Assembly: GCA_025558095.1 (NCBI GenBank)
Contig: JAIVFI010000017.1
Location: 620,001-684,000, forward strand
Reading direction: 5' to 3'
Source of the DNA: Hyaloraphidium curvatum SAG 235-1
Lineage: Eukaryota > Fungi > Monoblepharomycota
DNA: 64,000 nucleotides
Positions 17,222 to 52,905 of this stretch are shown in pieces. The translations under genes were made by a program, and so were the position numbers. Numbering within the stretch: position 1 is the stretch's first letter; each line of letters opens with the position of its first letter. The notes under the pieces are model-generated. The model saw nothing but the letters and a program-made list of their open reading frames with translations, was not told where the DNA came from and did not search any database.

Positions 17222-19350
17222 GAGATCCAGAAACCTCGCGCGCCTAAGGAATAGAAGATCACGATGGAGGACTCAGGTTCTATAGGTATCGCCTGCTTCT
17301 GATGTGGGTTTATGGTCCAGTTTAGGCCCTCAAACGGAAGCTCGAAGATGCGCACGAAGGATGTTGACTCGTTAGACCGCACCGGAGCATCGAAAGCTGA
17401 AGAGCCTGCGGCCATGATACTGTCCAGCGTGTTGTAGATAAATCACCTCCTTCGTCGGAATGATTTCGGCAAGAGGAATGTTCCTTCTCGCTGTAGTCCT
17501 GAGGCACGTCCTGCGGTCGGCGGCGAATCGACGCGCCGACCAAACTTCCACAGCGCGAGACGTCCGAGGTTTACCCTCTTGTTGATCGTCGGTCGGAAGA
17601 GAATATCAGGCTCGTGCCATGAGTGGAGAAAGCAAGCCCGCCGCCGCCGCCGCCGCCGCAATGGGCGTCCCCGCACTCCAAGACCCAACCTCTGCTGCCT
17701 CTCACGGCGACCCGAGCGCGCCGCACGGCGACCCAAGCGCGCCGGACGCCGATTTCTCGCCCGAAGAATGGGTGTGCCTGTTCCCCGCCGCGACGCCGCC
17801 GTTCCGGCCGCTGCTGCAAGACGAGGAAGCAGGGGAAGCGGGGGGCGACCCCGCGGCCGAGTTCCGAGGAGCGCACCCCGTGACGTTCGAAACCATGCTG
17901 GCCGACTTCGACGACCCCGTGCTCCGAATGTTCGCTTTTCTCTCCGCGTCTCCGACCGCGAGCTTCCTGGGCTGGAGGACCACAGGACTTACTGGACTCT
18001 CCGAGTGCTTCATGCTGGCATTCCAGGGGCTGGCATGGGCGTGGAACGACGGCCGTTTCGGAACCAAACAGATGGCGGTGGGAATGGCTTCCCTGGCTAT
18101 CATTGCCTCTATCGGCTTCGGAACTTTCGTTCTCTACGCCCTCGCCGTTCCCAGGGTGCCCAAGGTGCTCGATTTTTCCGCCCCGGCGGTGCTCTGCAGA
18201 TGGCTGCAGCTGACGAGGAAGGAGGGAGGGGGGAAACCTGGAGCACCGGTCAATGCTGGAGCCCGCAATCTCGTCGCGCACGAAGAGGGTGACCGTTTCT
18301 GTCCGTGCTCTGTCTGTGTCGGCAACATCCAGCAGCTTGCAGCTTGTATGACCTTCTTGGACATCGTTCTCAACTTCCTCGTTGGATTTTTCTGGGTATG
18401 GACTCCAGGTTGGACTGCACTTGTTACATATGGAGCCCAGCTGTGGTCCACATGGTGGGTTGCGTTCTCGGAGCAATCTACGGTTAGTGGCCTTGGCGTC
18501 GAGTGCTTCTGTTCACTCATCGCCATCTGCTTTGCAGCTTGCGCTTCGCTGGCGTACTTCAGGAACTGTGCTTGTCGCTTCGTTGGCATAGCCAACATTG
18601 CTTACGCTAGGCTTGAAGCAAGGCTGCACCATCGTGCTGTCTATGAGATCCATGCTGGAAACTGTGCTCAACGGACGCCCGAACAGGCAGGGACCGTGGT
18701 TGTACGTTCGCCTGCACCACAGCTTTGCTGCGTGGTGCAAGACGCGGGAGATCCAAGACCAAGCCATCGTCAGTAAATCGATGTTGGTCATCTTTTTGCC
18801 TTCGGTCGTCATTGCGATCGTTGTCAATGTCGTGAGTGGTTGGGACAGGGAATCGAGCATCCGGGGTGCTGACGCTGCCGCCATCAAACAGGCGGCCGGA
18901 TCCTGCGTCACTGCCTGGCTCCTCTTCGTCACCGGCTTGGTCGTCGTCTACATGCTCATCAACGCCATCAACCTCGCCTAGCGCAACAACCTCATCTCCG
19001 TCGTCGCATCGGCATACCACGATGCCCGGCGGGACCTCCGCACGGCGTGCCTCAAGCTCGGACCGACCCCTCTCGCCGCCGCGCTGGAGCAGCACGACCG
19101 CGTCATTGGCTCGTTCCTCGAGGTGTCGCGGTACAGCGCCAAGATTCTGGGGTTCACCGTCACCTACGGAGGCGTGCGGACCATGGTGGTCACGATGGTG
19201 ACCCTCTCTGTGGCTCTGTGGAGCGTGTTCAGGTCTCTGGGGGTGTTCTTCACGATGGAGAGCTTCTGTCCTTTGGTTGACTAGGAGGTGGAGCCAAAGG
19301 TGGCAAGAATCGCGATCGCCGCGCCGTCTATTCCGCCTCCGGCTCAGAGC
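17222..19350 (+). repeat. Segmental duplication, arm A (inverted relative to 39725-41980)
   Basis: The upstream region (e.g. GGATGTTGACTCGTT.GACCGCACCGGAGCATC, TTGTAGATAAATCAC), the coding region and the 3' flank all match the reverse complement of 39.7-42.0 kb. Confidence 0.92.
17619..19284 (+). pseudogene. Disabled copy of the multi-pass membrane protein (7TMIC/GRL-like)
   Basis: Compared with the paralogue at 39803-41462: -1 G near 18457, 8-nt deletion near 18641, and TCG>TAG nonsense codon at 18979-18981; intron 18483-18537 is conserved. Confidence 0.8.
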
Positions 19351-27258: not shown

Positions 27259-29144
27259 ATGGACGCCAAGAACGCGTCGCCGGTGGAGAGCGGCGTCGGG
27301 ATCAACATCGGCGGCGTGACGGACGTGAGCCGGGGACGCTCGCGCGGTCGTTCCATTCGCTCACAGCAGCCCCCTGAATCCCCGTCGTTGGCCTCGCGCG
27401 ATCTTCATCGGCACCGCTGCCGTCTTTTCCGCCGCGGCTTTGGCGGCATTCGCGCTCTTTTGCCCGGCCGACCAATCCGTTCATCCCCCCCGCTATCTCG
27501 GCCATTGCAGGCCAAAGTCGCCGGCTATGACAAGTTCATGGACCAGGTGAGCAAGCGATGGCCCCGATCTCGGCGACACGTGTCTCATTCGAGCTCTTTC
27601 AGCTGCTCCACTCGTTCCCGGGCGGGAACATGGCCTCTAGCTCGATGCGCTTCTCCTGGGTCCGCTGGTCGGGATCCGTCCGTGGGTTCCTGCATCATAG
27701 GGCCCCTCTTTGGTGGTCGCTTATCTTGTTTCGCAGTGCCCCGGGTCTGGCTCACTGTGGTGTTCTGGACGCTGTATGCCACGGTGATCGTCCTCATCGC
27801 CGAGCTGACTGGGTGGCGGAACACCATGAGCGCGCCCAACACCGGCATCATCAACCTGATTGGTGGGTCTTGTGCTGCGGGCCTGCTCTGGTCCGGATCA
27901 GGCAGTAATCACAAGTCCAGGCTTCGCCGCCGCCCTGCTCCTCGGTTTCCGCACCAACAGCGCTTGTGCGTGATCCCCGTGCTCCCATTTCCGCCCACGC
28001 CTCACCTTCGCCCCGCAGACGAGCGCTGGTACGAAGGCCGGAAGCTCTTCGAGGTCGCCTGCGCCCGCGTGCGCGAGATCGTGCGCTATTGGACTATTTA
28101 CTTCCCGGCCACCACGGACGAGGACAAGGGGCTGCAGCTCGATGCCTGCCGCGCCGCGGTCGCCTACGTATACGCACTCATGTGTACGTTCCTCGCTCCC
28201 TGCGGGCGGTTCCAAACCGTGCTGATCGCCGGTGCTTTCACACAGACCACCTCCGCGACGAGGACCCGCTCGACCACCCGGACTGCTCGGACCTCATCCC
28301 CCGCACCAAGAACGGCAACCTGGCCATCGAGTCCGACAACCCCAACACGCCGCGCTACTACTTCGAACAGGCGCACCGGGTCGTCCAGATGTCCGGGATC
28401 AACCGCACCGCCGGGACCGTAGAGATCAAGAAGAACCTCACGTCCTTCAGGCTGCCGGGCACGTGGCGCAACCCGCAGACCTACGCCGTGCCGTCGCAGT
28501 TGATGGGGCTCATGTACAAGTACACCAAGGAGAAGGCCGGGATCGCGCAGACGGGCCTCTTCACCGACCTCGGCTACACTCAAATGTCTTTGGAGCGCAT
28601 CCTGTCGACTCCCATGGTGGGCTGCTGTGTCGCCACGACACGGTATCGCTCGCTGACACCGCCCCATCCAGCCCCCCGTTTACTCCATTCACCTCAAGAT
28701 GGTCCTCACGATCTACTTCGCCAGCATCCCCTTCCAGTTCCTGCAGTGGTCGTACTTCGGCATCCTCCTCATGGCCGTCACCGCCTTTGTCATGTGGGGC
28801 TTCGAGTCCATGGGCCTCGAGCTCGAGAACCCCTTCGGGTGCGCACCTCCGCCTCCTTGCCGCAGCCTGCGAAAGCTGATCTCCCCCACCCCGACAGCTA
28901 CGACGCCAACGACCTCCCCCTGACCGAGATCTGCGCCATGCTCCGCCGCGAGATCGACTTCCTCTTCGAGAACCCGGTGTCGGACCTCGCGGACTGGGAG
29001 GCCAAGGCGACGCGCACGACGGACGAGCAGCTCGAGGCCGAGATGGCGGCAGAGAACGGGCTCACGGCCGAGGACATGGCGAGGCTGGACAAGAGGATGG
29101 CGGGGATCGACGCCGAGGACGAGAAGAGGATGAAAGCGCAGTGA
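27259..29144 (+). CDS. Bestrophin / UPF0187 family anion channel, multi-exon
   Basis: LLLGFRTNSA|.ERWYEGRK, LERILSTPM|..YSIHL and MGLELENPFG|YDANDLPL, with TM segments. Confidence 0.9.
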
Positions 29145-30111: not shown

Positions 30112-30783
30112 TCACACGACCGCCCAGACTATCCTCTCCTCCCCGACGACAAGCACCACCGCCTCCCCCTCCGGATCGTACAGCTCCACCGCCTCGAAGA
30201 ACCTGCCCGCGACCTGCGGCAGCCTCTCGCGCGGGACGAACTCGGCGTGCTCGACGGCGGGCGCGGGCAGCGACGAGAAAGGCACGCGGAGGGCACCGCG
30301 GCCGTGCACGGCGTAAGAGGAGCGCGCGAGGGCTCGGAGGGGGGGAGGGAGGGAGAGGAGGAGCTGGGAGAATGGGTCGGCGGCGTCGTAGGAGCTGTTT
30401 GTGGCGGAATACGAGTAAGACGACAACTGCGGAGTTTCGGGCGAGGAGGCGACCCACCCCTGCCCGCCGGACGAAAGCAGCGCAGTCACGACTGCCTCCA
30501 GCCGCTCCCTGGGCGCCACCAGCCTGATTCGCTCCTCCCTTTCCCGGGCCATCTCGGTCGCCCGCCGCGTCGGCATCCGCCAGCTGGCTTCGGAAGCGCC
30601 CTCTGCCGCCCCGGCGATGTCCCGCCGCATCTCCCACGCGAGCCCCTCGACCTTGCAGCGCTCCGAGCAGTACCCGTCGGCGAGCGAGCCGCGGCGGCGG
30701 TTCGGCGACGACTGCGCGGGGAACAGCGAGCGCAGGCACGCCGGGTTGGCGCACGCGCGCGGCGGCGGGATGAGCGACGCCAT
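30112..30783 (-). CDS. Hypothetical protein with an N-terminal Cys4 zinc-finger-like motif
   Basis: MASLIPPPRACANPAC...YCSERC; C-terminal HGRGALRV...VELYDPEGEAVVLV; single ORF. Confidence 0.55.
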   Translation of the reverse strand: MASLIPPPRACANPACLRSLFPAQSSPNRRRGSLADGYCSERCKVEGLAWEMRRDIAGAAEGASEASWRMPTRRATEMAREREERIRLVAPRERLEAVVTALLSSGGQGWVASSPETPQLSSYSYSATNSSYDAADPFSQLLLSLPPPLRALARSSYAVHGRGALRVPFSSLPAPAVEHAEFVPRERLPQVAGRFFEAVELYDPEGEAVVLVVGEERIVWAVV

Positions 30784-31276
30784 GCCGGGCGGAATCGGGC
30801 GTTCGAAGCGGGGCGGGCGGGAAACGGGGGCCGCTCGGTGCGGGGCCTCGGGGGAGGGTCGGGAGTCGGGAGCAAGGTCGGAAGGCGGACCGTGCGGAAC
30901 GAGGGCAAGCCGGGACGCGTGCGTCACCGGTCGCGGCGCCCGCCTCGGACGGCACTCCACGGCAGGACAGCGCGCCCGCGGTCGGACCGGGGCATGCACT
31001 GCCGCCCCGTTTCCCATCCGCGCAACTCCGGGGCCCGCGGGCGGGTTGACCGGTCGCGGGCGGCGGGGGTGTGGCACGCCGGCCACCACGGTGACGAGGA
31101 GATACTCGGGCTTCGCCCGCCTAGTGTTGTGCATCACCCTCCGGCTCGCCGGCCCGGCCACTACTCGCTCGCTCGCTACCCGCGCACGCATCCGTCGACG
31201 TCCGCCGCGCGATCGGCCCGTCCCCGCGGATAAACGGGCGCGCCCGCCCGTGCTTCCGCACGCACCTCGAACGGCG

Positions 31277-32941
31277 CTAGGAAGCGTGCTTCGCATGGCA
31301 CCGCCCGAGCACCCCCACGTCCCCCGCGAACGCGCGCCACACGGCGTCCAGCGGCCTCGACACCCTCCACCTCCTCCCGCCCTCCTCCACCGCATCTGGC
31401 ACCGCGTCCCCGGCCGTGCCCCCCGCCGGCGGCGCGATCCCGTCCCACGGCTTCCCGGCGTTGTCGAAGTGCGCCGCCGCGGCGTCCAGCACCGCCGCGG
31501 CCATCGCCGCCGGCCGCGGGCGCGAGCCAAAGGCCGGGGTGCCCCAGCGCGGGTGAATGGCGACGCACAGGCCCGTCGCGGCGACGTTGGTGGCGTAGGC
31601 GGTGGCGGAGAGGAAGGGCGGCCAGACGCCCGCGGGGAGGGCGGACTGCAGGAGGAGCAGGGCGGAGAGGCGCGCGGGGTAGCGGTGCCGGCGGGCGGAG
31701 CAGCCGTGGAAGAAGGAGATGCCGCCGCCGTTGACGGCGTCCTCCCACCAGACGTCGGAGCCGTTGGTGCCGCCCGAGCCGGACATGGCGGTGGCGATCG
31801 TGAGGGCGGATTCGATGCGGCTGCGCATGGCGGGGCCGACGGCGGAGGAGGCGGGGAGGGCGGTGGTGGACTCGGCGACGGGGAAGGGGTGGCGGGCGAG
31901 CGTGGGCACGGGGGCAAAGTGCGCGGGGTCGGCGCCGTTGGGGAGGAGGTGCGTGGCGGCGCCGGGGAAGGGCGCGTCCCGCGCGGGGTCGCGGAAGAGG
32001 ACGACGTCCGTGTCGACGAGGAGGAAGACGTCGCAGCCGAGCTCGGGGAACAGGTGCAGGGCAAAGATGCGCGCGAAGCCCGAGGCCGAGCGGACGATGC
32101 GCGCCTTGAAGGACGCCTCCCGGTCGGCCAGGAAGTGCGGGGCGATATCGGCGACGCGGCGAATGGTGAGCGCGCCGTCGGCGGTGCGGATGGAGGCGAG
32201 GTCGGCCACGAGGGGGTCCGCGGGCAGCTGCGCAATGTCGGGGCCGACGAACGGGAAGACGGAGCGGGCGGCGGCGTCCGCGCGGCCGGCGTCGACCACG
32301 CCCGCGCAGACGAGGAACGCGAGCAGCTCCTCGGGGTCGCCGTCGTAGCCGAGGAAGAAGCGCGGCGGGCCGTTGGAGGCGGCGTTGCGCGCGGCGCTGC
32401 GCATCAGCGCGGGCAGCCCGAGGCGGTGCGGGCCCCGGTCGGCGAAGGCGACCACGTTCAGCGGGCGCGCGTACGGCCGCTCGCCGGCCCTCACGGACGG
32501 CGCCGCGGCGCACGGGTCCCCCGCGTCCCCCGGCGGGGACGCCACGGGGTCGTCGGCGGGCGCGGGCGAGCAGCCCGGCATCAGCGGGTTGGTGGCGGCG
32601 GCGGCGAGGGCTGCGCGCTGCTTCAGCCGCTGGCGCTCGGCGCTCGCGGACGGCGGGCGGGCGCGCGCGGCGGCGGCGGCGAGGGCGCTGAGCTCCGCGG
32701 CGTCGAACGGCTGCGGCGGCGGCGCGGCGGCGAACTGCGCGCGCGCGGCACCCACGAGCTCGGGCGGCGCGGGCGCCACCGGCGGCGACGCGAAGCCGTC
32801 GTCGGCGCGGCCGTCGAGCAGCACGTCCGCCGCCAGCGCGACGAGCGCGTCGCCGCGCGGGGGGTGCCGCGGCAGCGCCCCGAGCGCCGCGCACAGCAGG
32901 AAGCCGGCACACGCCGCGAGCGCGGTCCGGGCGCGCGACAT
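31277..32941 (-). CDS. Secretory-pathway GT-A glycosyltransferase, GT8-like
   Basis: N-terminal hydrophobic anchor (ALAACAGFLLCAALGAL), Pro/Ala stem, LMRSAARNAS, and SGFARIFALHLFPELGCDVFLLVDTDVVLFRD (DxD in a GT8 context); no introns evident. Confidence 0.65.
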   Translation of the reverse strand: MSRARTALAACAGFLLCAALGALPRHPPRGDALVALAADVLLDGRADDGFASPPVAPAPPELVGAARAQFAAAPPPQPFDAAELSALAAAAARARPPSASAERQRLKQRAALAAAATNPLMPGCSPAPADDPVASPPGDAGDPCAAAPSVRAGERPYARPLNVVAFADRGPHRLGLPALMRSAARNAASNGPPRFFLGYDGDPEELLAFLVCAGVVDAGRADAAARSVFPFVGPDIAQLPADPLVADLASIRTADGALTIRRVADIAPHFLADREASFKARIVRSASGFARIFALHLFPELGCDVFLLVDTDVVLFRDPARDAPFPGAATHLLPNGADPAHFAPVPTLARHPFPVAESTTALPASSAVGPAMRSRIESALTIATAMSGSGGTNGSDVWWEDAVNGGGISFFHGCSARRHRYPARLSALLLLQSALPAGVWPPFLSATAYATNVAATGLCVAIHPRWGTPAFGSRPRPAAMAAAVLDAAAAHFDNAGKPWDGIAPPAGGTAGDAVPDAVEEGGRRWRVSRPLDAVWRAFAGDVGVLGRCHAKHAS

Positions 32942-33077
32942 CCCCAGCCACGCTCGCGGGGGGAGCGGGAGGGGGAGGGGGAGTCTGTCCCCACTGACGT
33001 CATCGGGCTGGTGTGGGTCCTGGGCCCCCACCGCAGCCCCACGCGCCGCAGCCCCCGCCGAGCGGTTCCGTGGGGCC

Positions 33078-34544
33078 ATGCGGGCGCTGGTCCGCGGGGC
33101 CGTCGCGGGCGCCGCGCTCTGCGCCGCCGCGGTGTGCGCCGCCGTGGCCGGCGAGGCCCGCGGGTGGGCGCCGCGCCCGCCGCCAGCGCTCGCGCCGCTG
33201 CTGCGCGGCCCCGTCGATGCCGCGGCGCTCGGGCGCGGGGCGCCGCGCGCGCAGCTGATCGCGGCGTTCGCGTTCGAGGGCCCCGCGCGTGCGCGCCCCC
33301 TCCGCGCACGCCCCGCGTTCCGGCACTGCCTCGTCGTCGCCGACGTCGCGCACGGCAACCGCTCCGGCCCGTCCAACCAGCTGCTGGCCGTCGTGCGGCT
33401 GGCCGTGCTCGCGCGCGACCTGCTCGGCTGTCGGCTGGCCGAGCCCGCGCTGGGCAGGCCGACGCGGTGGGGCGCCCCCGCGGTGCCGGCGTCGGCGCTG
33501 CTCGAGACGGACGGTGGCGCGTGGGCGCTGGCGGACGGCACGCCGCTCTTTGTCGGGCGCGACGAGGGGCTGCGGCTGGGCCTGCACCCCGCGTGGCTGC
33601 CGCCGCCGCCGGCAACCGCAGATGGCCCGCCGCCGGGGCGCCCGGCCGCCGCAGAGGACCCGCCGCCGGGCATCGCCTGCGCCATCACGCCCACCATCGC
33701 CCTGCTCACGCCGCCGGCCGACTACCCGCCGGCCATCCGCTGCTCCTCGGCGACCGCCGCGTGGGACCGCCCGGGCTGGGACGCGGACCTGCTCGCCGAC
33801 GCCCGGCGGACGCACGCCCCCGGCGGCCTCGCCGTCGTCGGCGTCCCCGTGCCCATGTTCTTCCACACCGCCTTTGCCCCCGACGACCCCGCCGCGGCCC
33901 GGCCCGTCTGGCACCTCAACGCCGCCCCGGAGCACCCGCGCTCGGTCCTCGCCCCGCGGCCGTTCCTGCGCGACCTCGCCCGCGCCTGGCTGGCCAACCT
34001 CACCGGGCTCGCCGTCCCTCCTTCCCGCGGCGGCGGCCCCTGCCCCGACCTGCCGTACGCCGCCGTGCACTCGCGCGCCGCCCCGTCCTACGCGCAGCTG
34101 TGCGCCGAGATCCCCGAGGTCCCCTGCGGCACCACCACCGCCGCCTCCGCCCTCGCCGCCTCGCAGCTCGCCTGCCGCCACCCGCTCGTCCTCATCGGCA
34201 GCGACACCCCCTCCGGCCTCGCCCGCGCCGCCCTCGCCGCCGCATCCGCCCTCTGCCCTTCCCCGGCGCGCATCGTCGACCTCCCATCGCAGCACCACCC
34301 GTCCATCCTCCCCTTCCTGCGCGGCCTCGTCCCCGCGCCTCCGCTGCTCGCCGCGGGCCCGCGCGACGCCGAAGCGCTCGCGCTCTACTCGGCGACGCAG
34401 CTGCTCATGGCGTGCGCGGACGAGTTCGCGGGCACGGCGAGGAGCACCTTCTCGGAGCGGGTCAGGGGACTCAGGGGGTGGCTGGGGAAGGGAGGCGTGG
34501 CGGAGCTGCCGCCGCTGAGGTTCGGGGGGCCGGACGGCGGGTGA
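33078..34544 (+). CDS. GDP-fucose protein O-fucosyltransferase-like (GT-B, PF10250-type)
   Basis: Type II anchor, SGPSNQL (GxxNQ), YAAVHSR (HxR), LIGSD and QLLMACADEFAGTARSTFSERVRGLR (GTxxSTFS); no introns evident. Confidence 0.72.
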   Translation: MRALVRGAVAGAALCAAAVCAAVAGEARGWAPRPPPALAPLLRGPVDAAALGRGAPRAQLIAAFAFEGPARARPLRARPAFRHCLVVADVAHGNRSGPSNQLLAVVRLAVLARDLLGCRLAEPALGRPTRWGAPAVPASALLETDGGAWALADGTPLFVGRDEGLRLGLHPAWLPPPPATADGPPPGRPAAAEDPPPGIACAITPTIALLTPPADYPPAIRCSSATAAWDRPGWDADLLADARRTHAPGGLAVVGVPVPMFFHTAFAPDDPAAARPVWHLNAAPEHPRSVLAPRPFLRDLARAWLANLTGLAVPPSRGGGPCPDLPYAAVHSRAAPSYAQLCAEIPEVPCGTTTAASALAASQLACRHPLVLIGSDTPSGLARAALAAASALCPSPARIVDLPSQHHPSILPFLRGLVPAPPLLAAGPRDAEALALYSATQLLMACADEFAGTARSTFSERVRGLRGWLGKGGVAELPPLRFGGPDGG

Positions 34545-34650
34545 CGTGCGCTCCCCGTCCGCGGGGACCCGATCGTGCGGCGCAGGGCCCGCCGCTTTTC
34601 CCCGCCGCCGCCCCGCGTGCCGGCTGTGCCGCGGAGCGGACCTGCGAACG

Positions 34651-34697
34651 CCGGCGGGCAGCCCCGCGCCGGCGGGCAGCCCTGCGCCGGCGGGCAC
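34651..34697. repeat. Intergenic 18-bp tandem repeat (CCGGCGGGCAGCCCYGCG, ~2.6 copies)
   Basis: Visible directly between two convergent genes. Confidence 0.7.
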
Positions 34698-34900
34698 GCG
34701 GCCGCCGAGCGCGCGGCGCGGGGGTCGGACCCGGGGCGGAACTCCGCAACGGTAGCCTGGGACGGGCGGCGGATGGAAGGGACGAAGGCGAATTCCGCCC
34801 CGAAACTCCGTCGCCCTTTTCACTCGTCGAGAGAGACCGCCTCAAAATACAACCCCGGACTCCCTTCCGCGCCAACTCCGCCCGTCCGCCCGCCCCGCCT

Positions 34901-36301
34901 TCACGCCAACACCTCCGCCACCACCAACCCTCCCCTCTCCGCCCTCAACCTCCGCACCATCCCCGCCATGGCCTCGTACACCACCATCACCCTGATCACC
35001 TCCAGCCCCGGCAAGCTCAGCAGCGCGTCGCCGACGGCCTCCCAGCTCGTCGTTCCCAGCTCTTTGCCGACCCTCCGCAGCTCGACCTCGCGCAGCCGCG
35101 AGAGGCCCGCGGGCGGGGGGCGGGGGAACCACCTGAAGAAGCCGGGCTTGGCGGCGAGCTTTTCCAGGCGGGTCTGTGGGAGCAAGAAGGCGAGCGGGAC
35201 GGAGGCGTGGGTGCCCGCGGCTTCGAGGAACGCGAGGCGCAGGAGGGAGGTGGGCGCGGAGGAGCGCAGCCGCGAGACGGCGCCCGGATCGCGGGGGAAC
35301 CAGCACGAATCCAGCGCGAGGTCCTCCAGCGCGGGGTTGTGCGCGAGGAGGGTGCAGAATGCGTCGTGGGCCGAGAGGAGGTCCACGGATTTAAGGTGCA
35401 GCACGCGGAGGGAGGAGGAGGGGAAGGAGGGGAGCCACATGAAGTTGCGGAGGGAGGTGGTGGCGCGGTCGATCTCGAGGCGGACGAGGCGGGTGGTGGC
35501 GGGTGCCAGAGCGGCGGGGGCGTCGTCCGATTGGGCGGCGTGGAGATTGGCAAGGCGCAGCCCCTCGAGCGCGCCGGGGTCGCGGAGCGAGAAGAGCGTT
35601 TCCAGGTCGTCCAGGCACAGGGGGCGCTCCCTGTTGTCCTGCAGCTGCAGGGTGCGCAGGCCAGGAGGGATGGCCGGGAGGAGCAGCGCGGCGCCGTCGT
35701 CCGTTTTGGGCGCGGCCACCGAGAGGGACGCCAGGTGCGGCCAGTTCCGCAGCATCCCGGCCGCCGCGGCGTCCGGCACGTGGTCGTTGAACAGATGCGG
35801 CACGTTGGAGGCCCGCAGTCCGTCCAAGATAATCGTCCATGCCCCGGGACTTGCTCGAAACGTCCGCGCGAAAGAGACCGTCCTCAACCCTCTGCACCTC
35901 TTCAGCGCCTCGGCCGCCCTCCCGACGTTGTCCTCCGACACTCCGATCACCGCGTGCCGCACGAACGACGCGTAGAGCTCCCCTCTTGGCCCTTCCAGCG
36001 CCGGCAGCACCGGGTCCCTCAGGTTCAGGTGCGCCCACAGCAGCTCCGCGCATGCCGCGTGCCACGAAGCGTCCAGCGCGATCAGATTGAAGAGGGATTT
36101 GCGGTCGGAGGGGCGGCAGCGGCACAGGAGGATGTCGGACCACGCGGTGCAGCGGCACGCGCGGGACGCGCGGCGGACGACGCGGCGGACGAGCTCGAGG
36201 AGCAGCCGGGGGCGCGGGCGCGGAGAGGAGGGGGGCGGCGGCGCGTCCGCCTCGTCCGCATCGCTTTCCGCGGCGCCATCGAGGTCCGGTTCGGAGGACA
36301 T
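34901..36301 (-). CDS. F-box-like / RNI-type leucine-rich-repeat protein
   Basis: SLFNLIALDASWHAACAELLWAHL followed by repeated LxxLxL units (LRTVSF, LASLSV, LRTLQL, LEGLRL, LRVLHL, LEDLAL, LREVEL). Confidence 0.7.
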   Translation of the reverse strand: MSSEPDLDGAAESDADEADAPPPPSSPRPRPRLLLELVRRVVRRASRACRCTAWSDILLCRCRPSDRKSLFNLIALDASWHAACAELLWAHLNLRDPVLPALEGPRGELYASFVRHAVIGVSEDNVGRAAEALKRCRGLRTVSFARTFRASPGAWTIILDGLRASNVPHLFNDHVPDAAAAGMLRNWPHLASLSVAAPKTDDGAALLLPAIPPGLRTLQLQDNRERPLCLDDLETLFSLRDPGALEGLRLANLHAAQSDDAPAALAPATTRLVRLEIDRATTSLRNFMWLPSFPSSSLRVLHLKSVDLLSAHDAFCTLLAHNPALEDLALDSCWFPRDPGAVSRLRSSAPTSLLRLAFLEAAGTHASVPLAFLLPQTRLEKLAAKPGFFRWFPRPPPAGLSRLREVELRRVGKELGTTSWEAVGDALLSLPGLEVIRVMVVYEAMAGMVRRLRAERGGLVVAEVLA

Positions 36302-36519
36302 TGTGGCGAATGGTAAAGCGGGGGCGACGCCGCTTCCTCTGCAGCGATGCGCATCACCATTCGTTGCGTCTTCTGACCATGGAAGGCTATTATTGATGCT
36401 ATTGGATCTTGTCAGACTGTCTTCGAAACAATATGAGGAAGGGTGAAGCATGCAGACCCTGTATCTCCAAGAGTCTCCTCAAACTCCGCCTTCGGACGGC
36501 AGCAACCCAGGCCGCCCGA

Positions 36520-37752
36520 ATGAACCGTCTTTCGCTCCTCGTGGAGCTCGCCTCCCCCTTTATAGCCCCCGATGTGCCCACGATGGCCGCGCTCCAGTCT
36601 TTCATCGCCGCGGACGGTCTCGAAGTGGACACGTCTCCCATGTGGCGGCTCGCGCTCCTGGACGGCAGCCCGAACGCGCTGCTTTCGTGCCTTCCGACGT
36701 ATCTCGGGCGGCCGATGCCCGTGAACATTTTCGCCCGCTTCGTGGAGCCGGAGGACCTGAAGGCCTGCTCGGCCGACGCGTTTGCCCAAGTCGCCGGGCG
36801 GATACGCGACGCGCGATGGCAGCTGCTTGTACCGGACCACGCCTCCGAATCGGCCAACGCGGAGGGCGAAAGCGACCGGTGGGAAGACCGGAGGTGGGGC
36901 CGGCAGGAGGACGATGCGTTCGACTGGCGGCGCCTCGACGAGCGCGCCGCGGAGGTCACCCTCGGCCGCGCCGCGGGGGACCCGTACGCGGCTTACCTCG
37001 AGGAAGAGGTGTTCTCCGCGAAGCCGAGGAGGAGGCGGACGACCTCCGCCAGCCTGCGGCAGGAGGTCCTTTCGGCCGCCCTCCGGGAACGGGGCTACGA
37101 GGGGCTGGCGAAGCACCCTGCATCGCAGAGGTGGATCCTGGGCTACCTCCGCGGCTTCTTCGCCGACGCCGTCGGCCGCGTCCTCGACGAGCTCGAGACG
37201 ATCGGGTTCCTCCTTGCGGAAACGCGGTACCCCGAGATCCTGGCGGCCGCGCTCGCGGAGGAAGGCGTGCGCCCGCGCTGGTTCGCCGGGAGGTTCGGGC
37301 AGCGGACGTACGACGCCGTTTGGAGCGCGGAAACGCGCGCCCGGGACGAGGCGGTCGCCGAGTACGTTGCCTACCGCGGCCCCGTGGGCCTGCCGCGCCG
37401 CGCTGCGTGGATCCACGAGGCGAAGGAGCGGGCCAAGGCCGCGAAAGCCGAGCAGGAGTACCGGACGGCCCGTCACCTTGCTCTGATGGCGGAACAGCGC
37501 AAGGCAAAGGAGGAGAGGCTGGCGCGGGAGGAGGCTGCCAAGGCCGACACGCGGGCCGCGGTCGTCGAGCGGCACCGTTTGGCCTTCGAAGCGCTCGCTT
37601 CGGACCCGGAAGCCGCCCCCGTGCCTCCGATCCACGGCCTGACCTCCAACGAGCGGGCCGCGCTGCACGGCTTTGCACAATCGCTGGGGCTGGAAACGTG
37701 GAGCGACGGGCCGCGGTGGTACAGGGTGTTGCACGTCGCGAGACGGGACTGA
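36520..37752 (+). CDS. Hypothetical protein with coiled coil and C-terminal R3H-like domain, copy 1
   Basis: Intronless ORF; charged helix, then PIHGLTSNERAALHGFAQSLGLETWSDG (R-x3-H). Confidence 0.7.
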   Translation: MNRLSLLVELASPFIAPDVPTMAALQSFIAADGLEVDTSPMWRLALLDGSPNALLSCLPTYLGRPMPVNIFARFVEPEDLKACSADAFAQVAGRIRDARWQLLVPDHASESANAEGESDRWEDRRWGRQEDDAFDWRRLDERAAEVTLGRAAGDPYAAYLEEEVFSAKPRRRRTTSASLRQEVLSAALRERGYEGLAKHPASQRWILGYLRGFFADAVGRVLDELETIGFLLAETRYPEILAAALAEEGVRPRWFAGRFGQRTYDAVWSAETRARDEAVAEYVAYRGPVGLPRRAAWIHEAKERAKAAKAEQEYRTARHLALMAEQRKAKEERLAREEAAKADTRAAVVERHRLAFEALASDPEAAPVPPIHGLTSNERAALHGFAQSLGLETWSDGPRWYRVLHVARRD

Positions 37753-37970: not shown

Positions 37971-39033
37971 TCAAACAGCGATGCAATCAACCGCTCTCGG
38001 CCCCGCGTCCACAGCGAGCCACGCACCCTGCCCCTCCGCCCCGCCATACCGACCCCAGTCCCCAATGCGTTCCATCTCCCAGAACCACGGATGCGCCAGC
38101 GCCTCCGCGGCCGTTGCCCTCCGCCCCTGGTCCGGGCAAAGCATCCGTGTGACGAGGTCCCCGAAACCGTGCGAGAACCCCGCGGGCAGCCCCGCCCAGC
38201 GGCACTCGCAGATGGCAGCAAACAGCCCGTGGAAGTCCTCCGCTTGCGCGAAAGGGGTGCGGCCGGTGGCCAGCTCAACGGCGATGCAGCCCGCCGCCCA
38301 GACGTCCACACCGCGGCCGTACGGCAGGCAGCGGACGATCTCGGGGGCGAGGTAGAACGGCGTGCCCGCCAGCTGCGAGAACTGGCCCTGCGCATCCGTG
38401 CCAAAGTCCCCGCAGATGCCGGCGTTGTCGAAATCGGCCAGCGCGAGGTCCGAAGGGTCCGCTTCGGGGCGGCGGAGGAGGATGTTGGAGGGTTTGAGGT
38501 CGCGGTGGGCGATGCCTCGCGAATGGAGGTACGCGAGACCGGAGAGTATGGAGCGGAGGACGGGGCGGATGAGGTGCTCGGGGAGGGGGCCGTGCAGGGT
38601 GAGATAGGTGCGGAGGTCCATCGCGCAGAGCTCCATGACGGTGTAGACCTGTCGGAGCGGGGCGGAGTAAATTCAGGCAAACACTCCAATCTTCCAGCGA
38701 CGCAGATCACACCTTTGACCGGGTCTCGAACATCTCGAACACGCGGCAGACGTTCGGGTGGTTCAGCGACGACAGGGCACCGAACCGGTGCCGCGCCGCC
38801 CTGCGCTCGGCGGCGTCCGCGGGGCACCACACGCTCTTGACGGCGACCTCGCGCCTGTTGTCGAGGCACACCGCGGCGCGCACGCGGCCGGACGCCCCGC
38901 TGCCGAGAGTGGCCCCGGACGCGATGCGGCGGCGGCGTGCGCGGCCGGCGGCAAACAGCGCGGCGTCGGCGGCAGGCGGAGCGGGCAATGAGGCCGGTGG
39001 AGCCTCTCCGCCGCTCGCGCTCGTGAGCGCCAT
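37971..39033 (-). CDS. Atypical CAMK-like Ser/Thr kinase (DFD), copy 1
   Basis: FAAGRARRRR, LGSGASGRV, VAVK, HRDLKPSN, ADFDNAG, GTPFYLAPE, DVWAAGC; one intron ~38649-38712. Confidence 0.88.
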
Positions 39034-39724: not shown

Positions 39725-41980
39725 AGCTGTGAGCCGGAGGCGGAATAGACGGCGCGGCGATCGCGATTCTTGCCACCTTTGGCTTCATTACACGGCCACC
39801 TCCTAGTCAACCAACGGGCAGAAGCTCTCCATCGTGAAGAACACCCCCAGGGATCGAAACACGCTCCACAGAGCCACAGAGAGGGTGACCATCGTGACCA
39901 CCATGGTCCGCACGCCTCCGTAGGTGACGGTGAATCCCAGAATCTTGGCGCTGTACCGCGACACCTCGAGGAACGAGCCAATGACGCGGTCGTGCTGCTC
40001 CAGCGCGGCGGCGAGAGGGGTCGGTCCGAGCTTGAGGCACGCCGTGCGGAGGTCCCGCCGGGCATCGTGGTATGCCGATGCGACGACGGAGATGAGGTTG
40101 TTGCGCGAGGCGAGGTTGATGGCGTTGATGAGCATGTAGACGAGGACAATGGAAAGGCAAAAGAGGAGCCATGCGGGAATGCAGGACCCGACGCCCTGAC
40201 GGATGGCGGAAGCGCTAGATCAGTCCCAGATTGTCTTCCCCGAATCGTGTGTCACTCACGACATTGACAATGATTGTGATTACAATCAGAGGAAACATGA
40301 TGACAAACACGGAGTTGCTGAGCAGTGTCTGGTCCTGCATCTCGCGCACTTTGCACCAAGCTGCGAAGCCGTGGTGAAGCCGAACGTACAGCCAAGGCTC
40401 TGACCCGGTCGGCCGGTCCCCGAGTGCAGTTTGCAGCATGGATCTCATGGAGAGGACGACAGCACGATGGTGCAGCCGCGCTTCGAGCCTCGCGGACGCG
40501 ACGTTGGTCACCCCGACAAAGCGAGCTGCAGAGTTCATGAAGGATGCCACGGCGACACAAACTGCAGGTTGGAGATATGTGAGTCAGCAGAGTCATTCCT
40601 GCGACGGGCGTGCGATGGCCTGACTGTAGATGGCCCCGAGAACACAACCCCACCACGTGGACAAGAGTTTGGAGCCAAAAGTGATCCACGTGGTCCATCC
40701 GGCAGTGAAGGTGAAAAGGAATGAGAACAAGAAGTTGTAAACGATATCCAAGAAGGTCATGCAAGCTGCAAGCCGCTGAATATTGCCAACGCAGCCGGAA
40801 CACGGACAGAACCGGTCGCCCTCTTCGTGCGCGACGAGGAAGAGGCTTCCATCGAATGACCCACGACCAGGTTTTGGCCCTTCTTCCTTCCTCGTCAGCT
40901 GCAGCCATCTGCAGAGCACCGCCGGGGCGGCGAAATCCAGCACCTTTGGAACGCTGGGCATGGCCACCGCGACGAGGCCGATGGCAAAGAATCCAAGCGC
41001 AGTTGCGGAAACAACACCTGCGACCATCTGCTTCGTTCCGAAGAGGCCATCGTTCCATGACCAGGAGAGTCCTTGGAAAGCCAACATCATGCAATAGCAG
41101 AGTCCCACTTGCGCAGCGCTCCTCCACCCGAGGAAGCTTGCGCTCCGAGACGCGCCAAGAAAAGCGAACATTCGGAGCACGGGGTCGTCGAAGTCGGCCA
41201 GCATGGTTTCGAACGTCACGGGGTGCGCTCCTCGGAACTCGGCCGCGGGGTCGCCCCCCGCTTCCCCTGCTTCCTCGTCCGGCAGCAGCGGCCGGAACGG
41301 CGGCGTCGCGGCGGGGAACAGGCACACCCACTTTTCGGGCGAGAAATCGGCGTCCGGTGCGCTCGGGTCACCGTGCGGCGCGCTCGGGTCGCCGTGAGTG
41401 GTTGGGTCTGGGAGCGCAGGGACGCCCATTCCGTCGGCGGCGGGGTTGTTTTCTCCGCTCATGGCGCGAGTGCTATCGAGATGCCTCTTCAGGCCGACGA
41501 GCAACAAGCGAAGAATCCTCCGGCGTCTCGCGCTGTGGAAGTTTGGTCGCGTCGATCGCCTCAGGACGTGCCTCAGAACCAGAGCGAGAGGATAGATCTG
41601 CTTGGCAAGAGGTAGTGGCAAGAGGAGGGGAGAGGCGGCCCTTCGCTCGTCCCTCGCTTCGGCCTTCTCCCCTCTTGCTTCTTGAGCCGCTACGCGACTC
41701 ACCTCTTGCCACTGCTCCGGCCGTAACATCCTTTTGCCGAAATCACGGAAGGAAGTGATTTATCTACAACATGTTGGACCGTATCATTGCCGCAGGCTCT
41801 TCAGATTTGGATGCTCCGGTGCGGTCCAACGAGTCAACATCCTTCGAGCCCATTTTCGAGCCTCCGTTTGAGGGCCCAAACCCACATGAGACGCAGGCGA
41901 TACCTAGCGCATGGCAACTGAGTCCTCCAATCGCGACCTTCTGTGCCTTTGGTGCGCGAACCGCGCGCGTTTCTGCATCG
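39725..41980 (-). repeat. Segmental duplication, arm B (inverted copy of 17222-19350)
   Basis: Reverse-complement match to arm A, with an extra segment at ~41580-41720 upstream of the CDS. Confidence 0.92.
39803..41462 (-). CDS. Multi-pass membrane protein, putative 7TM ion channel / gustatory-receptor-like (GRL, DUF3537-like)
   Basis: Intact after removing intron ~40563-40625; no signal peptide; about 7 hydrophobic helices; C-terminal SFLEVSRYSAKILGFTVTYGGVRTMVVTMVTLSVALW resembles the 7TMIC TM7 region. The family call is an inference. Confidence 0.6.
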
Positions 41981-42197
41981 CGGAGCAAGGACGATCCCCG
42001 AGGGGTACGGCGGTCGCGGGCTGACGAACGGAACCAGGTGTGAAGCCATCGCTGCAGATATCATCTCTCCAAGGGCATCGTGTCCCCGTCCTCGGCGTCC
42101 ATGCGCACGTCCAACGACGGGATGAATTCTGCATCAGCACAAGACCGCACAACCCCATCGCTCTCCGCACAGCGGAAGCCACCGCCTGGCGCGCACA

Positions 42198-43383
42198 CTA
42201 TGCCTCCCCCGCCAGGCACCTCAGCTCCCCCGTCCTTTCGTCGAACGCCACCCACGCCCCCGCCCACCCCTCCCTCCCCATCCGCACCTCCCGCGGATCC
42301 CAGAACCAAGGATGCGCCAGCGCCCCCGCCGCCGTCACCCTCTCCCGCTGGTCCACCACCAGCATCCGCGCGACGAGGTCCCTGAACCCGGACGAAAAAC
42401 CATCCGGCAAGCCCGCCCAGCGCCCGGCGCCGATCGCCGCGTACAGCTCGTGGAAGCTCCCCGCGCCCTCGAAGGGGGTGCGGCCCGTCGCCAGCTCGAC
42501 GGCCATGCAGCCCAGCGCCCAGATGTCCACCTCACAGCCGTAGGGCGAGCCGCGGACGATCTCGGGGGCGATGAAGTACGGGGTGCCCGCGATGGTCCGG
42601 AACGGTGCGTGCGGGCCGAAGCCGGGATGGGAGGAGGGGGGTAACACCCGCGGCGTCGAAATCCGCAAGGGCGAGGTCCGACGGGTCCTCGTCCGGGCGG
42701 CGGAGCAGCACGTTGGACGGCTTCAGGTCTCGGTGTGCGATGCCCCGCGAGTGGAGGTACGCCAGGGCCCAGAGGATCGAGCGCAGGATGGGGCGGATGC
42801 GGTGTTCGGGGAGGGGGCCGTGCGCGTCGAGGTACGCCTGGAGGTCGGATTCGCAGAGCTCCATGACGGTGTAGATCTGGAGGCGGGAGCATCAGAACGA
42901 GCCCCACGGCACCAGCGAACACGCCTGGAGACTAACCTTGTGCTCGGTTTCGATCCGCTCGAACACGCGGCACAGGTGCGGGTGGTCCAGCGCCGCGACC
43001 GCCTCGAACCTCGCGCGGGCGGCTTCCCCGTCCTCCGGCGCGAACGGCGCCCACCCCAGCGCGTGCACCCTGCGGCAGCTCTTGAGCGCCACGCGCCGCC
43101 CGTCGTCCAAACAGACGGCCGCGCGCACGCAGCCCGTCGACCCGCCGCCGAGGGCCGCGTAGGCCGCGAACCGGCGGCGGCGCGCGCGCCCTGCCGCGAA
43201 GGGGCCCGCCGGGTCGACCGGCGGGGAGAGCTCCGACGCCGCGCGGGGGAGCTGCATGTGCCTGGGGCGTGCCGGGCAGGTGGCCGGGGCGGGGCGGCCG
43301 TCTTGCACACGCCAGAGCTGCCCCGGACGCGGGATCGCGACGGGCGCGCTATGGGCAGGCAATTGGTACGCTTCCGCGGCCAT
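42198..43383 (-). CDS. Atypical CAMK-like kinase (DFD), copy 2; +1 frameshift in a G6 run at ~42636-42641
   Basis: FAAGRARRRR, LGGGSTGCV, VALK, HRDLKPSN, ADFDAAG, then (shifted) IAGTPYFIAPE and DIWALGC; same intron position as copy 1. Confidence 0.82.
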
Positions 43384-45697: not shown

Positions 45698-46940
45698 CTA
45701 TCCCTCAGGGCGAGCGATGTGGAGCACCTTTGGGCCGGAATACGGTCCCTCGCTCCAGCACTCGAACCCGAGCCACTCGGCATATCCCCGGAGCGCGGAC
45801 CTCCGGTTCGCGAGCAGCCCCTCGATCGGCGGGATCGGCGACGCTTCCGAATCGGAAGCCAGGGCTTGCAGGGAGGGCCGGCCGGAAGCGCTCGACGACC
45901 TCCACGCGCTCCTGGTACCTCGCAGCCTTCTTCTTCGCGTCCCTCTCCTCCTTTCCCTTGCGCTGCTCCGCCTCCCGCGCCCGATGCAGCTCCTGCCGCT
46001 CCTCCTCCGCGGCCTTGCGGGCCTTGGCGCTCTCCCTCGCCTCGTGGACCCACGCCGCGCGGTGCGGCAGGCCCTCGGGACCCCGGGCCGCGACGTATTC
46101 CGCGATCGCCCGGTCCCGCGCGCGCGACTCGGCGCTCCAGACGGCTTCGTACGTGCGCCTGCTGAAATCGCCGCGGTACCAGTTGGCGGCCGGGCCTGCC
46201 GCGGCCAGGGCGCGCGAGTGGATGTCGAGGTAGCGCGTGTGCGCGAGGAGGAACTGCAGCGTTTCGAGCTCGTCGAGGAGACGGGGGAGGCCGTCGGAGT
46301 AGAACTGCCGGAGGTGGCCGAGGATCCAGCGCTGGGATACGTGGAGCTTGCAAAGGCTGACGTAGCCCCGATCGCGCTGCGCGATCGGGTGCACCTCGTG
46401 CCGCAGGCTGTCCGAAGTCGGCAGCCTCCTCGTGGAACCGCGGTTGGCAGGCAGCTTTTCGTCGAGGTACTTCCGGTAAGGATCCGCCGCGCGGCCGAGG
46501 GCAACGTCCCCCGAGACCTCCGCGAGCCGCCTCCAGTCGAACGCGTCGTCCTCCACTTGGGCCTGCCACTGATGCCACAGCTCATCGTCATCCTCGACAT
46601 CCTTGCGGCTGCCGTAAAGAGGGTTGATCTGCATGAGGAAGTCGGGCCGCGCGTCGCGCATCCTCCCGGCGACTCGGGCAAACGCGTCGGCCGAGCAGCC
46701 CTTCAGGTCCTCCGGCTCCACAAAGCGGGCGAAAATGTCCACGGGCATGGGTCGCCCGAGATACATCGGCAGGCAGGACAGCAGCGCGGCCGGGCCGTCC
46801 AGGAGCGCGAGCCGCCACATGGGAGACGTGTCCACTTCGAGGCCGTCCGCGGCGACGAACGCCTGGAGCGCGGCCATCGTGGGCACGTCGGGAGCGACGA
46901 AGGGGGACACGAGCTCCACGAGGAGCGAGAGGCGGGACAT
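45698..46940 (-). CDS. Hypothetical protein with degenerate R3H-like tail, copy 2 (inverted paralogue of 36520-37752)
   Basis: N-terminus nearly identical to copy 1 (RLSLLVEL.SPF.APDVPTMAALQ...); +1 base in a C/G run near 45872 before QALASDSEASPIPPIEGL. Confidence 0.7.
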
Positions 46941-47335
46941 TGAGGGCAAAGCGGGGCAGCTGAGTTTAAGGACGCGACGGGACCGCTTTTGAGACAGTCG
47001 CGACTTGCAACTCCATCCACTTCGCCATTGGATGCCTCAGCTGCTCGAACAGAACATGACACGATGCATGAGGATTAGTCTGTGCCATCCATCCTGAATT
47101 TCTTAGCCAACGTCAGGCCCAGAAGTGGATCACATCCAGGGCGACATCGCTATAGCGCTATCCTCGGGCGCTTGCTCATCCCGCTCCCTTGGCACTCCGC
47201 TTCCGGGCCTCTGCAGAACGCGCTAGACGTGCGCCCGAGCTCTGCCTCCCCGTAATTCTCGTGCCCTGGTTAGTGGCGTGCTGCCCTCCGTGTCGCGAGA
47301 CCCTGCTCGAGCTCCGCGCCCCCGGCAAACAGAAG

Positions 47336-49330: not shown

Positions 49331-50381
49331 TCAGGCGGCGACGCACCGCAGCTCCCCAGTTCCTTCGTCGAAAGTCACCCAGGCCCCCGCTCCCGTTGGC
49401 CCCTGCTGCCTCCCTCCGCCGCGGGATTCCCAGGACTCCCAGAACCACGGGTGCGCCAGCGCCTCGGCCGCCGTCATCCGCTCCCGCTGGTCCACCACCA
49501 GCATCCTTCCCACGAGGTCCCTGAACGCGGCCGAGAACCCGGCGGGCAGCCCGCCCCACCGGCCGAGCTCGATCGACGCGTACAGCTCGCCAAAGTTGGC
49601 CGCGCCCCCAAACGGCGTGGAGCCGGTGGCCAGCTCCACGGCGATGCAGCCCAGGGCCCACATGTCGACCTCGCTGCCGTAGGCGGCGCCGCGGACGATC
49701 TCAGGGGCGAGGTAGAAGGGGGTCCCCGCGATCGTCTGGAAGGGCGCCTGCGCGAAGAAGAAGTTTGGCGACGAGGAGCACACCCCCGCCGCATCGAAAT
49801 CGGCGACGGCCAGGTCCGACGGGTCCTCCTCCGGGCGGCGGAGGAGCACGTTCGAGGGTTTGAGATCGCGATGCGCGACGCCGTTTGCGTGGAGGTATGC
49901 GAGGGCGGAGAGAATCGAGCGGAGGATGGGGCGCAGGGAGCGCTCCGGGATCGGGCCGTGCGAGTGGAGATAGGCCTCGAGGTCCGTTGCGCAGAGCTCC
50001 ATGACCGTGTAGACCTGGGGCCGGCGGTGGGTCAGAAGACCATGAATCAATAGCAGGGGTATAAATCACCTTGCCCTCGACCTCGATGAGCTCGAGCAGG
50101 CGGCAGAGGTTCGGGTGGTTCAGCTTCGCCACGGCCCGGAACCTGGCCCGCAGCGCGTCGCGCTGGGAGGCGGGCGCGCTGCAGCTCTTCAGCGCGACCC
50201 GCTGCCCGCTGTCGAGGCAAACCGCGCCGCGCACGCGGCCGGACGCCCCGCTGCCGAGAGTGGCAAAGGACGCGATGCGGCGGCGGCGTGCGCGGCCAGC
50301 GGCAAACAGCGCCGCGTCGGCGGCCGTCGGCGGGGGAGGCGAGCCCGGTACTGCGGGCGGGGAGTCTCTCGCGAGGCCCAT
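49331..50381 (-). CDS. Atypical CAMK-like kinase (DFD), copy 3
   Basis: FAAGRARRRR, LGSGASGRV, VALK, HRDLKPSN, ADFDAAG, GTPFYLAPE, DMWALGC; same intron as copies 1 and 2. Confidence 0.88.
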
Positions 50382-51095: not shown

Positions 51096-52715
51096 CTAGT
51101 TCTTGACGGCGGCCTTAAGCAGCGCGTCAAAGATCTTGGCCGAGCGGCCGTCGCCGAGGAGACCGGCCCGCAGGCGGTTGGGAACGTAGCCGAAGCCCAG
51201 GCCGTGCTCCTTCGACCACTGAAAGACGGACCCGCCGTAGCCGAACTGAAAATCAGGCGCGTGAGCTCGGCAAGTCACAACGGAGACAAAAGACCCACCC
51301 ATCCGTGCCAGGTGACGTCGTTGCCGACCATCGACTCGGTGTAGAGCGGCTTCGGCGGCTGCGCCGTCAGGTCGAACAAGTACACGGGGATCCTGATCCC
51401 GGCCATGGACTCGGCCCACCCGCCGTGTGTGTACGGCACCGGGAACCCGATGCAGGCGTCGGGGTCGTTTTTGACGCCCTCGTGGATCTTGGAGGCCGCC
51501 TCGAAGCCCTTGGGCGACACCAGCTCGACGCCGTCGATCGAGCCGCCCTGGGCCATGGCCCCGGCGAGCCGGCCGAGCGTGCGGGCGTTGGTCACCGTGA
51601 AGGCCGCCGAGGTTTCGGAGGTCCAGAGCTGCGGGTCGTTGGAGCCCACCGACGAGTCGACCAGCTGCTTCTGCACGCCCTTGGGGATGCTGGCAAAGGT
51701 CTTGTAGATGGGCGTGGTCTGGTCGGCCATCATGACCTGGTACTGGGCCACCAGCATGTCCTCCTCCTGGAGCAGCGACACGCGGCCGTGCTTGTCCTTG
51801 GGCAGGCCGCAGTAGACCTCGGCCCCGAGCTTGGCGTTGAGCTCGTCCCGCCACAGGTCGCCGTGGGTCTTGCCCGCGACCCTCCGCACGAGCTCGTTCA
51901 GGAACCAGCCGCGCGTGACGGCGTGGTAGGACTTGGTCGTCTTGCCGCCGAAGTTGTGCGGCTGCGAGGCGATCTTGGCCGCGAGCTTCTCCTGGTTGCC
52001 CATCTGGACGTCCTCGATCGTCGGAAGGTGCTCGTCGTCGAGCCAGCCGACGCCGCCGGAGTGCGCGCTGTCGGTGCGTTCGAAAAAGCGCCCTGTGGTC
52101 AGCGACGAGACAGATCAGCTGGGTGTCCGGCACCAACCAGAGATCAGCGATGGTCACGTTCTCCTTCCCGCCCGCCGCGAACTCGGGCCAGTACTTGGCC
52201 ACGGGGTCCTCGTACTTGAGCAGCCCCTTGCCGACCAGGTGGGCGATGGTCAGCGACATGAGCGCCTTGCCGCTCGAGTGGACGATGTTGAGGCTCTCGG
52301 GCGTGTAGGGCTTCGTCTGGGGCGCGGCGGGGACGGTGAGCGGGCGAACGAGAGCGGGCACAACGGTTCGAGCCCACCTTATCAAAGTCCGAGTGGCCGG
52401 CGTACCTGTTTTTGGTCGGAGCGACGCGAGGGGGCAAGGTGGGGGACACCGCGGACCACGAGTCAGCCTCTCCAGCGGGCGGCACGGGCGACGAGGCTGC
52501 CCACATCTCCACGACGCATTTCCCGTCCTTGTAGATGCAGAGCCCGGCGCCGGTCTCGCCGTCTTTCTCGTCCCAGTTGGACAAGAAGGCATCTCGAACT
52601 CCCTCGTAACTGTCTCCGGGCCGGCGTCAGGGAAGGGCGCGGAGGGTCGGACAGGGGCGGGAACGCACCCGGGAGCGCAGGTGACGACGGTCACGGGGAG
52701 ACCGGCGGGAGCCAT
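51096..52715 (-). CDS. Beta-lactamase-family serine hydrolase (EstB/EstA-like esterase)
   Basis: GAGLCIYKDGKCVVEMW, HSSGK (SxxK), VAKYWPEFAAGGKENVTI, YHAVTRG, FGYGGS, FGYVPN. Confidence 0.9.
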   Translation of the reverse strand: MAPAGLPVTVVTCAPGCVPAPVRPSAPFPDAGPETVTREFEMPSCPTGTRKTARPAPGSASTRTGNASWRCGQPRRPCRPLERLTRGPRCPPPCPLASLRPKTGTPATRTLIRWARTVVPALVRPLTVPAAPQTKPYTPESLNIVHSSGKALMSLTIAHLVGKGLLKYEDPVAKYWPEFAAGGKENVTIADLWLVPDTQLICLVADHRALFRTHRQRALRRRRLARRRAPSDDRGRPDGQPGEARGQDRLAAAQLRRQDDQVLPRRHARLVPERARAEGRGQDPRRPVAGRAQRQARGRGLLRPAQGQARPRVAAPGGGHAGGPVPGHDGRPDHAHLQDLCQHPQGRAEAAGRLVGGLQRPAALDLRNLGGLHGDQRPHARPARRGHGPGRLDRRRRAGVAQGLRGGLQDPRGRQKRPRRLHRVPGAVHTRRVGRVHGRDQDPRVLVRPDGAAAEAALHRVDGRQRRHLARMGGSFVSVVTCRAHAPDFQFGYGGSVFQWSKEHGLGFGYVPNRLRAGLLGDGRSAKIFDALLKAAVKN

Positions 52716-52905
52716 TGCGGTGCGGGAGGTGTGGCGGCGCCGAAAAGAGGATTTGGCGAAGGGCGTCGGCGCCGACTCGGCCGCTCACTTGCCGCTTCCT
52801 CACTCGGGCTCACTCCGAAGTCAGAAGTCAGAATGCAATGTATAGCACAAAGCTGAAGCAGATACAATAAGGATGGTTGCGAGGCGAGCATGCTCGTGAA
52901 CGCGA

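Follow-up and report, generated by a model that had tools for sequence, protein, structure and literature searches.

Proteins with a predicted seven-transmembrane ion channel fold form a large, divergent family in the fungus Hyaloraphidium curvatum

The window analysed here, a 64,000-nucleotide stretch of the Hyaloraphidium curvatum SAG 235-1 genome (contig JAIVFI010000017.1, positions 620,001 to 684,000), carries on its minus strand a gene whose 510-amino-acid (aa) product is, as structure modelling supports, a seven-transmembrane ion channel (7TMIC) by fold, but not a member of DUF3537, the gustatory receptors (GRs) or the odorant receptors (ORs) by profile. The protein belongs to a large family, whose members probably serve as subunits of ligand-gated cation channels for chemical sensing, a function argued by analogy with insect channels of the OR/GR 7TMIC fold.

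The fold model was made on P0004, the closest full-length paralog of the protein (38% identical to it across residues 37-507, with an E of 5e-97), with a 113-row alignment, and has a pLDDT of 93.1 and a pTM of 0.91. In a structure search, fifteen consecutive OR, GR and Orco rows aligned with it nearly full length. The comparison with Orco and BmGr9 put forward in the original prediction, run on this paralog, thus gave an OR/GR/Orco fold match, and the predicted divergent 7TMIC is supported by this near end-to-end alignment and by a matching split of transmembrane helix (TM) 7. The model has the long TM4, TM5 and TM6 helices of the anchor domain (242-303, 314-360, and 365-413), and its TM7 consists of a helix at 417-432, two short strands, and a helix at 449-472; the corresponding helices of MhOr5 span 420-434 and 448-472. 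A helix at 65-80, a candidate for the re-entrant TM0, precedes TM1, and the structural alignments start at model residues 51-68 against chain residues 1-16. The Foldseek TM-scores of P0004, compared with insect structures only, are 0.25-0.38 by query and at most 0.46 by target and do not exceed 0.5, which in the superfamily paper is the threshold for a network edge among all 7TMICs, not an entry rule.

Plant DUF3537 is a feature neighbour in the ESM Atlas of both P0004 (0.92) and exon 3 of the window gene (0.88). In Pfam, none of the three exon pieces of the gene matched a family, and nothing relevant came up for 113 aligned family members at E<=1, where the best 25 of 37 weak families are listed and do not include 7tm_7; within this scope, DUF3537 (PF12056), 7tm_7 (PF08395), and 7tm_6 were not matched above the curated cut-offs. 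A profile search of PDB sequences found nothing. The label originally proposed, gustatory receptor-like (GRL)/DUF3537-like, stands as to the 7TMIC fold, with DUF3537 as an Atlas neighbour, but not as to the DUF3537, GR or OR profiles.

The gene extends exactly over the predicted interval, 39803..41462, from an ATG at 41462 to a stop codon at 39805-39803 (window coordinates). No single reading frame covers it, as it is interrupted by two introns; the spliced coding sequence of 1533 nt is made up of three exons. The start methionine is supported by paralogs, P0002 and a second copy in the window (at 17619), which share it. The joints for both introns are present in contigs of a putative RNA run, X1, the sole run listed with matching contigs, whose RNA nature is only guessed. 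The G+C content of the window is 60-80%. The features of the gene and its product are:

40625..41462, minus strand: exon 1, 838 nt; residues 1-279 plus one base, with the hydrophilic N-terminus, candidate TM0, TM1-TM3, and the start of TM4
40791..40829, minus strand: cluster of H212, C219, C221, and C224, a predicted metal (Zn) site within the first cytosolic loop; pattern in 70 of 73 aligned long members
40562..40624, minus strand: intron 1, 63 nt, GT-AG, phase 1, two in-frame stops; X1 joint 40561-40625
40260..40561, minus strand: exon 2, 302 nt; residues 280-380, with TM4 and its cytosolic extension, intracellular loop 2, and TM5
40196..40259, minus strand: intron 2, 64 nt, GT-AG, phase 0; X1 joint 40194-40259 (cut +1)
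39803..40195, minus strand: exon 3, 393 nt; residues 381-510 and stop, with extracellular loop 3 (EL3), TM6, TM7a, hairpin, TM7b, and outer tail
40181..40183, minus strand: EL3 residue Cys385, predicted to pair with Cys506 in a disulfide; conserved in 135 of 144 members (8 gaps)
39971..40018, minus strand: TM7a helix, residues 440-455, anchor region; mapped by alignment from model helix 417-432 of P0004
39923..39970, minus strand: residues 456-471, comprising the linker and the beta-hairpin; the model has two short strands here, and Gly467 is conserved in 141 of 144
39851..39922, minus strand: TM7b, residues 472-495, predicted to be the pore helix; includes T477, T484, A488, S491, V492, and R494; the most conserved membrane segment
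39818..39820, minus strand: Cys506, within the outer tail at the C-terminus; conserved in 139 of 144 (4 gaps)

The first 100 residues are devoid of any hydrophobic stretch (the top Kyte-Doolittle 19-mer scores 0.82, at 86-104) and no signal peptide is evident, as foreseen, while the seven hydropathy peaks (at about 111-134, 146-170, 231-254, 266-289, 356-384, 386-409, and 466-499) agree with the approximately seven TM helices expected. The inner loops of the protein contain 7, 8, and 7 lysines and arginines (K+R), the outer loops 0, 1, and 0, and the outer tail 0. In the aligned long members the mean length is 51, 70, and 61 aa for the inner loops (K+R 4.4, 8.9, and 8.0) and 9, 15, and 4 aa for the outer loops (K+R 0.6, 0.5, and 0.1); extracellular loops shorter than the intracellular ones are a 7TMIC trait. 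This positive-inside excess gives, computationally, an N-in, C-out orientation, consistent with the anticipated N-in topology. The long Cys-containing loop after TM2 is also present; it has about 53 aa and holds C219, C221, and C224 besides H212, a cluster that may, judging from the sequence, form a metal (Zn) site. A disulfide between Cys385 and Cys506 is likewise predicted, and the P0004 model has strands in the respective regions, at 362-364 and 476-478. The stretch taken for the C-terminus does occur, at residues 454-493, but is followed by 17 further residues with the nearly invariant Cys506. The hairpin had been placed before the split TM7; in the paralog model this GF hairpin lies between TM7a and TM7b, and it is there that TM7 is split.

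In BmGr9, as described in the available part of PMC11100771, the hydroxyl rings are those of T429 and T436, and the gate is made up of I440 and F444. At the end points of the structural alignments, V469 of P0004, equivalent to V492 of the window protein, falls on F444 of BmGr9 in three rows and on L473 of Orco in two, with one row off by one and MhOr5 off by three, such end points giving a rough register only. Among the 144 members that include the C-terminal region, T484 is kept in 143 and T477 in 102, and position 492 is V, I or L in 140. The I440 equivalent is G or A in 141 and the Q443 equivalent S, T or G in 143, the gating Gln being lost, and hence the gating chemistry would differ from that of BmGr9. 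None of the 73 long members has the strict animal TM7 motif, (T/S)Yhhhhh(Q/K/E)(F/L/M), of which there remain the Thr (143 of 144) and a V, I or L in the last position; the motif has diagnostic value without being definitive, according to Benton et al. 2020 (PMC7746228, in the part available). Mean pairwise identity in the aligned long members is 0.48 in TM7b, the highest of the membrane segments, and lowest, 0.15-0.19, in TM1-TM5. A fixed pore helix with a variable pocket across many diverged members is the signature of a receptor repertoire.

The family was collected with phmmer, using exon 3 as the query against 1.84 billion representatives at 50% identity, which gave 252 matches at E<=0.001, the best 150 of which are listed. 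The family profile is matched by 150 of the 151 collected proteins; the 144 with the C-terminal region fall into 142 groups at 90%, and the mean identity among the 73 long sequences is 28%. Source look-up for 20 matches, taken from all parts of the ranking but favouring long ones, returned 17 proteins of H. curvatum, two Logan proteins, and one spurious ankyrin protein. Ten matches chosen for low-GC-type composition are all environmental proteins, and relatives therefore exist in other organisms. Two proteins from Logan data, P0058 and P0060, share a longest contig of 14,807 bp, which suggests tandem copies in another organism. At least 27 members are named as H. curvatum and are spread over 20 contigs, told apart by length. 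H. curvatum accounts for 19 of the 21 looked up among the 97 listed matches of at least 300 aa, from which about 85-90 are estimated for this fungus, with a probable total of about 90 or more diverged members. H. curvatum belongs to the phylum Monoblepharomycota and is non-flagellated (PMC8371127, part of the text).

Insect ORs and Orco (AaegOR10, 8V00/8V02; AgamOR28, 8V3C; MhOR5, 7LIC; Orco, 6C70) show 7-9% identity to the H. curvatum protein, which is about 100 aa longer, has a 50-aa first inner loop with the His/Cys3 cluster and a 15-aa outer tail with a Cys after TM7b, and lacks the TYhhhhhQF motif. Compared with insect GRs (BmGr9, 8VC1/8UVT; Gr43a, 8JM9; Gr64a, 8JME), it has Gly/Ala at the I440 position, Ser/Thr/Gly at the Q443 position, and Leu/Val/Ile in place of the motif Tyr, and it has no Pfam match, among the families listed, to the GR families 7tm_7 and Trehalose_recp. 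SpunGRL1 and SpalGRL1 of Spizellomyces, also fungal 7TMICs, keep one of the four TM7 motif positions; compared by description, as far as PMC7746228 and its supplement present them, they are single-copy proteins of about 425 aa without a His/Cys3 loop in the part displayed, and share the GF hairpin (LYGFVV versus ILGFTV here). No Spizellomyces protein is among the 30 phmmer matches with a looked-up source, and no direct alignment was made. The part of Benton et al. 2020 (PMC7746228) drawn on here gives one GRL for each of two Spizellomyces species, six for Thecamonas and Vitrella, and 4-12 for plants. Plant DUF3537 proteins, the Atlas neighbour, are Class A 7TMICs with 4-12 copies in plants, and are not matched in Pfam by the 113 members (E<=1, 25 families listed). 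The PHTF-like (Class B) 7TMICs have a long first intracellular loop and a similar Z to Orco, as here; no PHTF cluster is among the Atlas rows listed. TMEM39 (PF10271) is another Atlas neighbour of the P0004 family (0.93), and possibly an unrecognised 7TMIC-like vertebrate family; a literature search linking TMEM39 to odorant receptors yielded no paper.

If the family functions as proposed, four subunits would assemble with TM7b lining a central pore, as in the solved insect channels, T477 and T484 forming two hydroxyl rings (T429 and T436 in BmGr9) and V492 a hydrophobic gate (F444 in BmGr9, L473 in Orco). Binding of a small molecule between the variable TM1-TM5 helices would shift TM7b and open the gate, EL3 would be tethered by a Cys385-Cys506 bond to where the pore helix ends, and a metal ion would be held by the His/Cys3 cluster; the pocket may have diversified by duplication, conversion, and loss. 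Several observations weigh against ligand gating and speak for a fold kept by descent in endoplasmic reticulum-resident scaffolds, leak channels or lipid scramblases, an unlikely but not negligible alternative: the Gly/Ala at the I440 equivalent with the loss of the gating Gln, the increased resting current of the BmGr9 I440A mutant (PMC11100771, in part), the PHTF-like Z to Orco together with the long first inner loop of that class, and the view of the Benton papers that channel activity of most 7TMICs is an open matter. However, a housekeeping role needs no dozens of paralogs at such low mean identity, nor does it fit variable TM1-TM5 beside a fixed TM7b.

Slightly less probable again, the proteins would be true 7TMIC channels acting in defence or non-self recognition, with bacteria, grazers or parasites eliciting ion flux or cell death. 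The family is large, dispersed, and fast-diverging, with pseudogenes and conversion tracts, in a non-flagellated cell, dynamics that match those of fungal immune gene families, and the window also carries duplicated kinases and ankyrin proteins; yet Pfam finds no attached death or signalling domain, and birth-and-death is equally typical of chemoreceptors. It is very improbable that the OR likeness results from convergence or is a helical-bundle artefact in a family unrelated to 7TMICs, given the run of aligned OR/GR/Orco rows, the agreement in TM7a-hairpin-TM7b spacing and threonine register, and language-model neighbours that independently are 7TMIC families. A kinase-membrane fusion (receptor kinase), as in the 634-aa NCBI model P0001, which joins an upstream kinase to residues 24-199 and 348-510, is scarcely credible, because X1 contigs cross its supposed introns unspliced (one over 41301-42062, another over 40259-40914 with only the 63-nt intron removed), no kinase-to-7TM-gene joint is listed in X1, the model removes TM3-TM4, and none of 72 aligned long relatives has a kinase family.

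7TMICs in fungi are already known; what would be new is the large expansion in H. curvatum. Hyaloraphidium, Gonapodya and Monobleph- are absent from the main text of the 2023 7TMIC preprint, and Hyaloraphidium was not found in 13 of the 53 files that supplement PMC9998090, three or four of these 13 being truncated; the preprint data sets may nevertheless include sequences of H. curvatum. Literature searches on 7TMICs, fungi, Hyaloraphidium, and chytrid GRL/DUF3537 gave no report of the family among the papers listed. It is likely that H. curvatum evolved a large chemosensory ion channel repertoire of its own. A bolder proposal, to which we give a little less than an even chance, is that a single-celled non-motile fungus arrived on its own at ligand-gated channels of the OR/GR fold in numbers like those of insects (about 100 or more genes), with a gate of distinct design, a disulfide that tethers the pore helix on the outside, and a metal site in the cytosol. 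If true, no earlier case of so large an expansion of chemoreceptor channels would be known among eukaryotes other than animals, and the genes would provide a panel at hand for probing pre-insect 7TMIC roles; whether non-insect 7TMICs are ligand-gated channels is a question raised by the superfamily authors themselves. The fungus is culturable, and its diverged members offer many independent candidates for deorphaning, and what a non-swimming cell senses becomes a question in itself. Pfam misses the family as a whole, and its annotation is wrong in part, the window gene being annotated as a kinase.

The second copy of the gene in the window is broken:

17619..19284, plus strand: paralogous broken copy with the same two splice positions (X1) and 98-100% identical DNA tracts at both ends

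It has lost 1 nt and 8 nt near 18460 and 18640 and carries a TAG at 18979-18981, a variant present in an X1 contig. At first and second codon positions it differs from the intact gene by 1% in codons 25-100 and 401-505 and by 13-28% between these end tracts, a conversion-like pattern of the kind that gene conversion would leave. The region upstream of this copy (17236-17482) shares 81% identity with 41725-41959, and both of these upstream stretches are covered by contigs, which suggests long 5' leaders with many upstream ATGs. A minus-strand spliced contig (18984-19700), noted at 19530-19588, overlaps the 3' part of the copy and suggests an overlapping neighbour transcript.

Elsewhere in the window there are four paralogous Ser/Thr kinase genes (37974-38998, 42201-43257, 49334-50349 on the minus strand, and 60885-61813 on the plus strand), three of them about 70% identical in DNA and two flanking the 7TMIC gene. 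An inverted duplicate pair (36519-37713 and 45743-46941, 73% identical) and tandem duplicated genes at 13889-16862 (71-76% identical) gave no Pfam family for the long frames and the frames tested, respectively. A 1965-codon open frame at 30419-36316 (plus strand, 74-80% G+C) also has no Pfam family, and two tandem ankyrin-repeat genes, 70% identical, lie at 5144-8953 (plus strand). Partial matches were obtained to Bestrophin_2 (27160-28422, plus strand) and, on the minus strand, to Beta-lactamase-like (51099-52784), AtuA (54330-55649), ABC transporter (22243-23064), and short-chain dehydrogenase (24935-25636) families.
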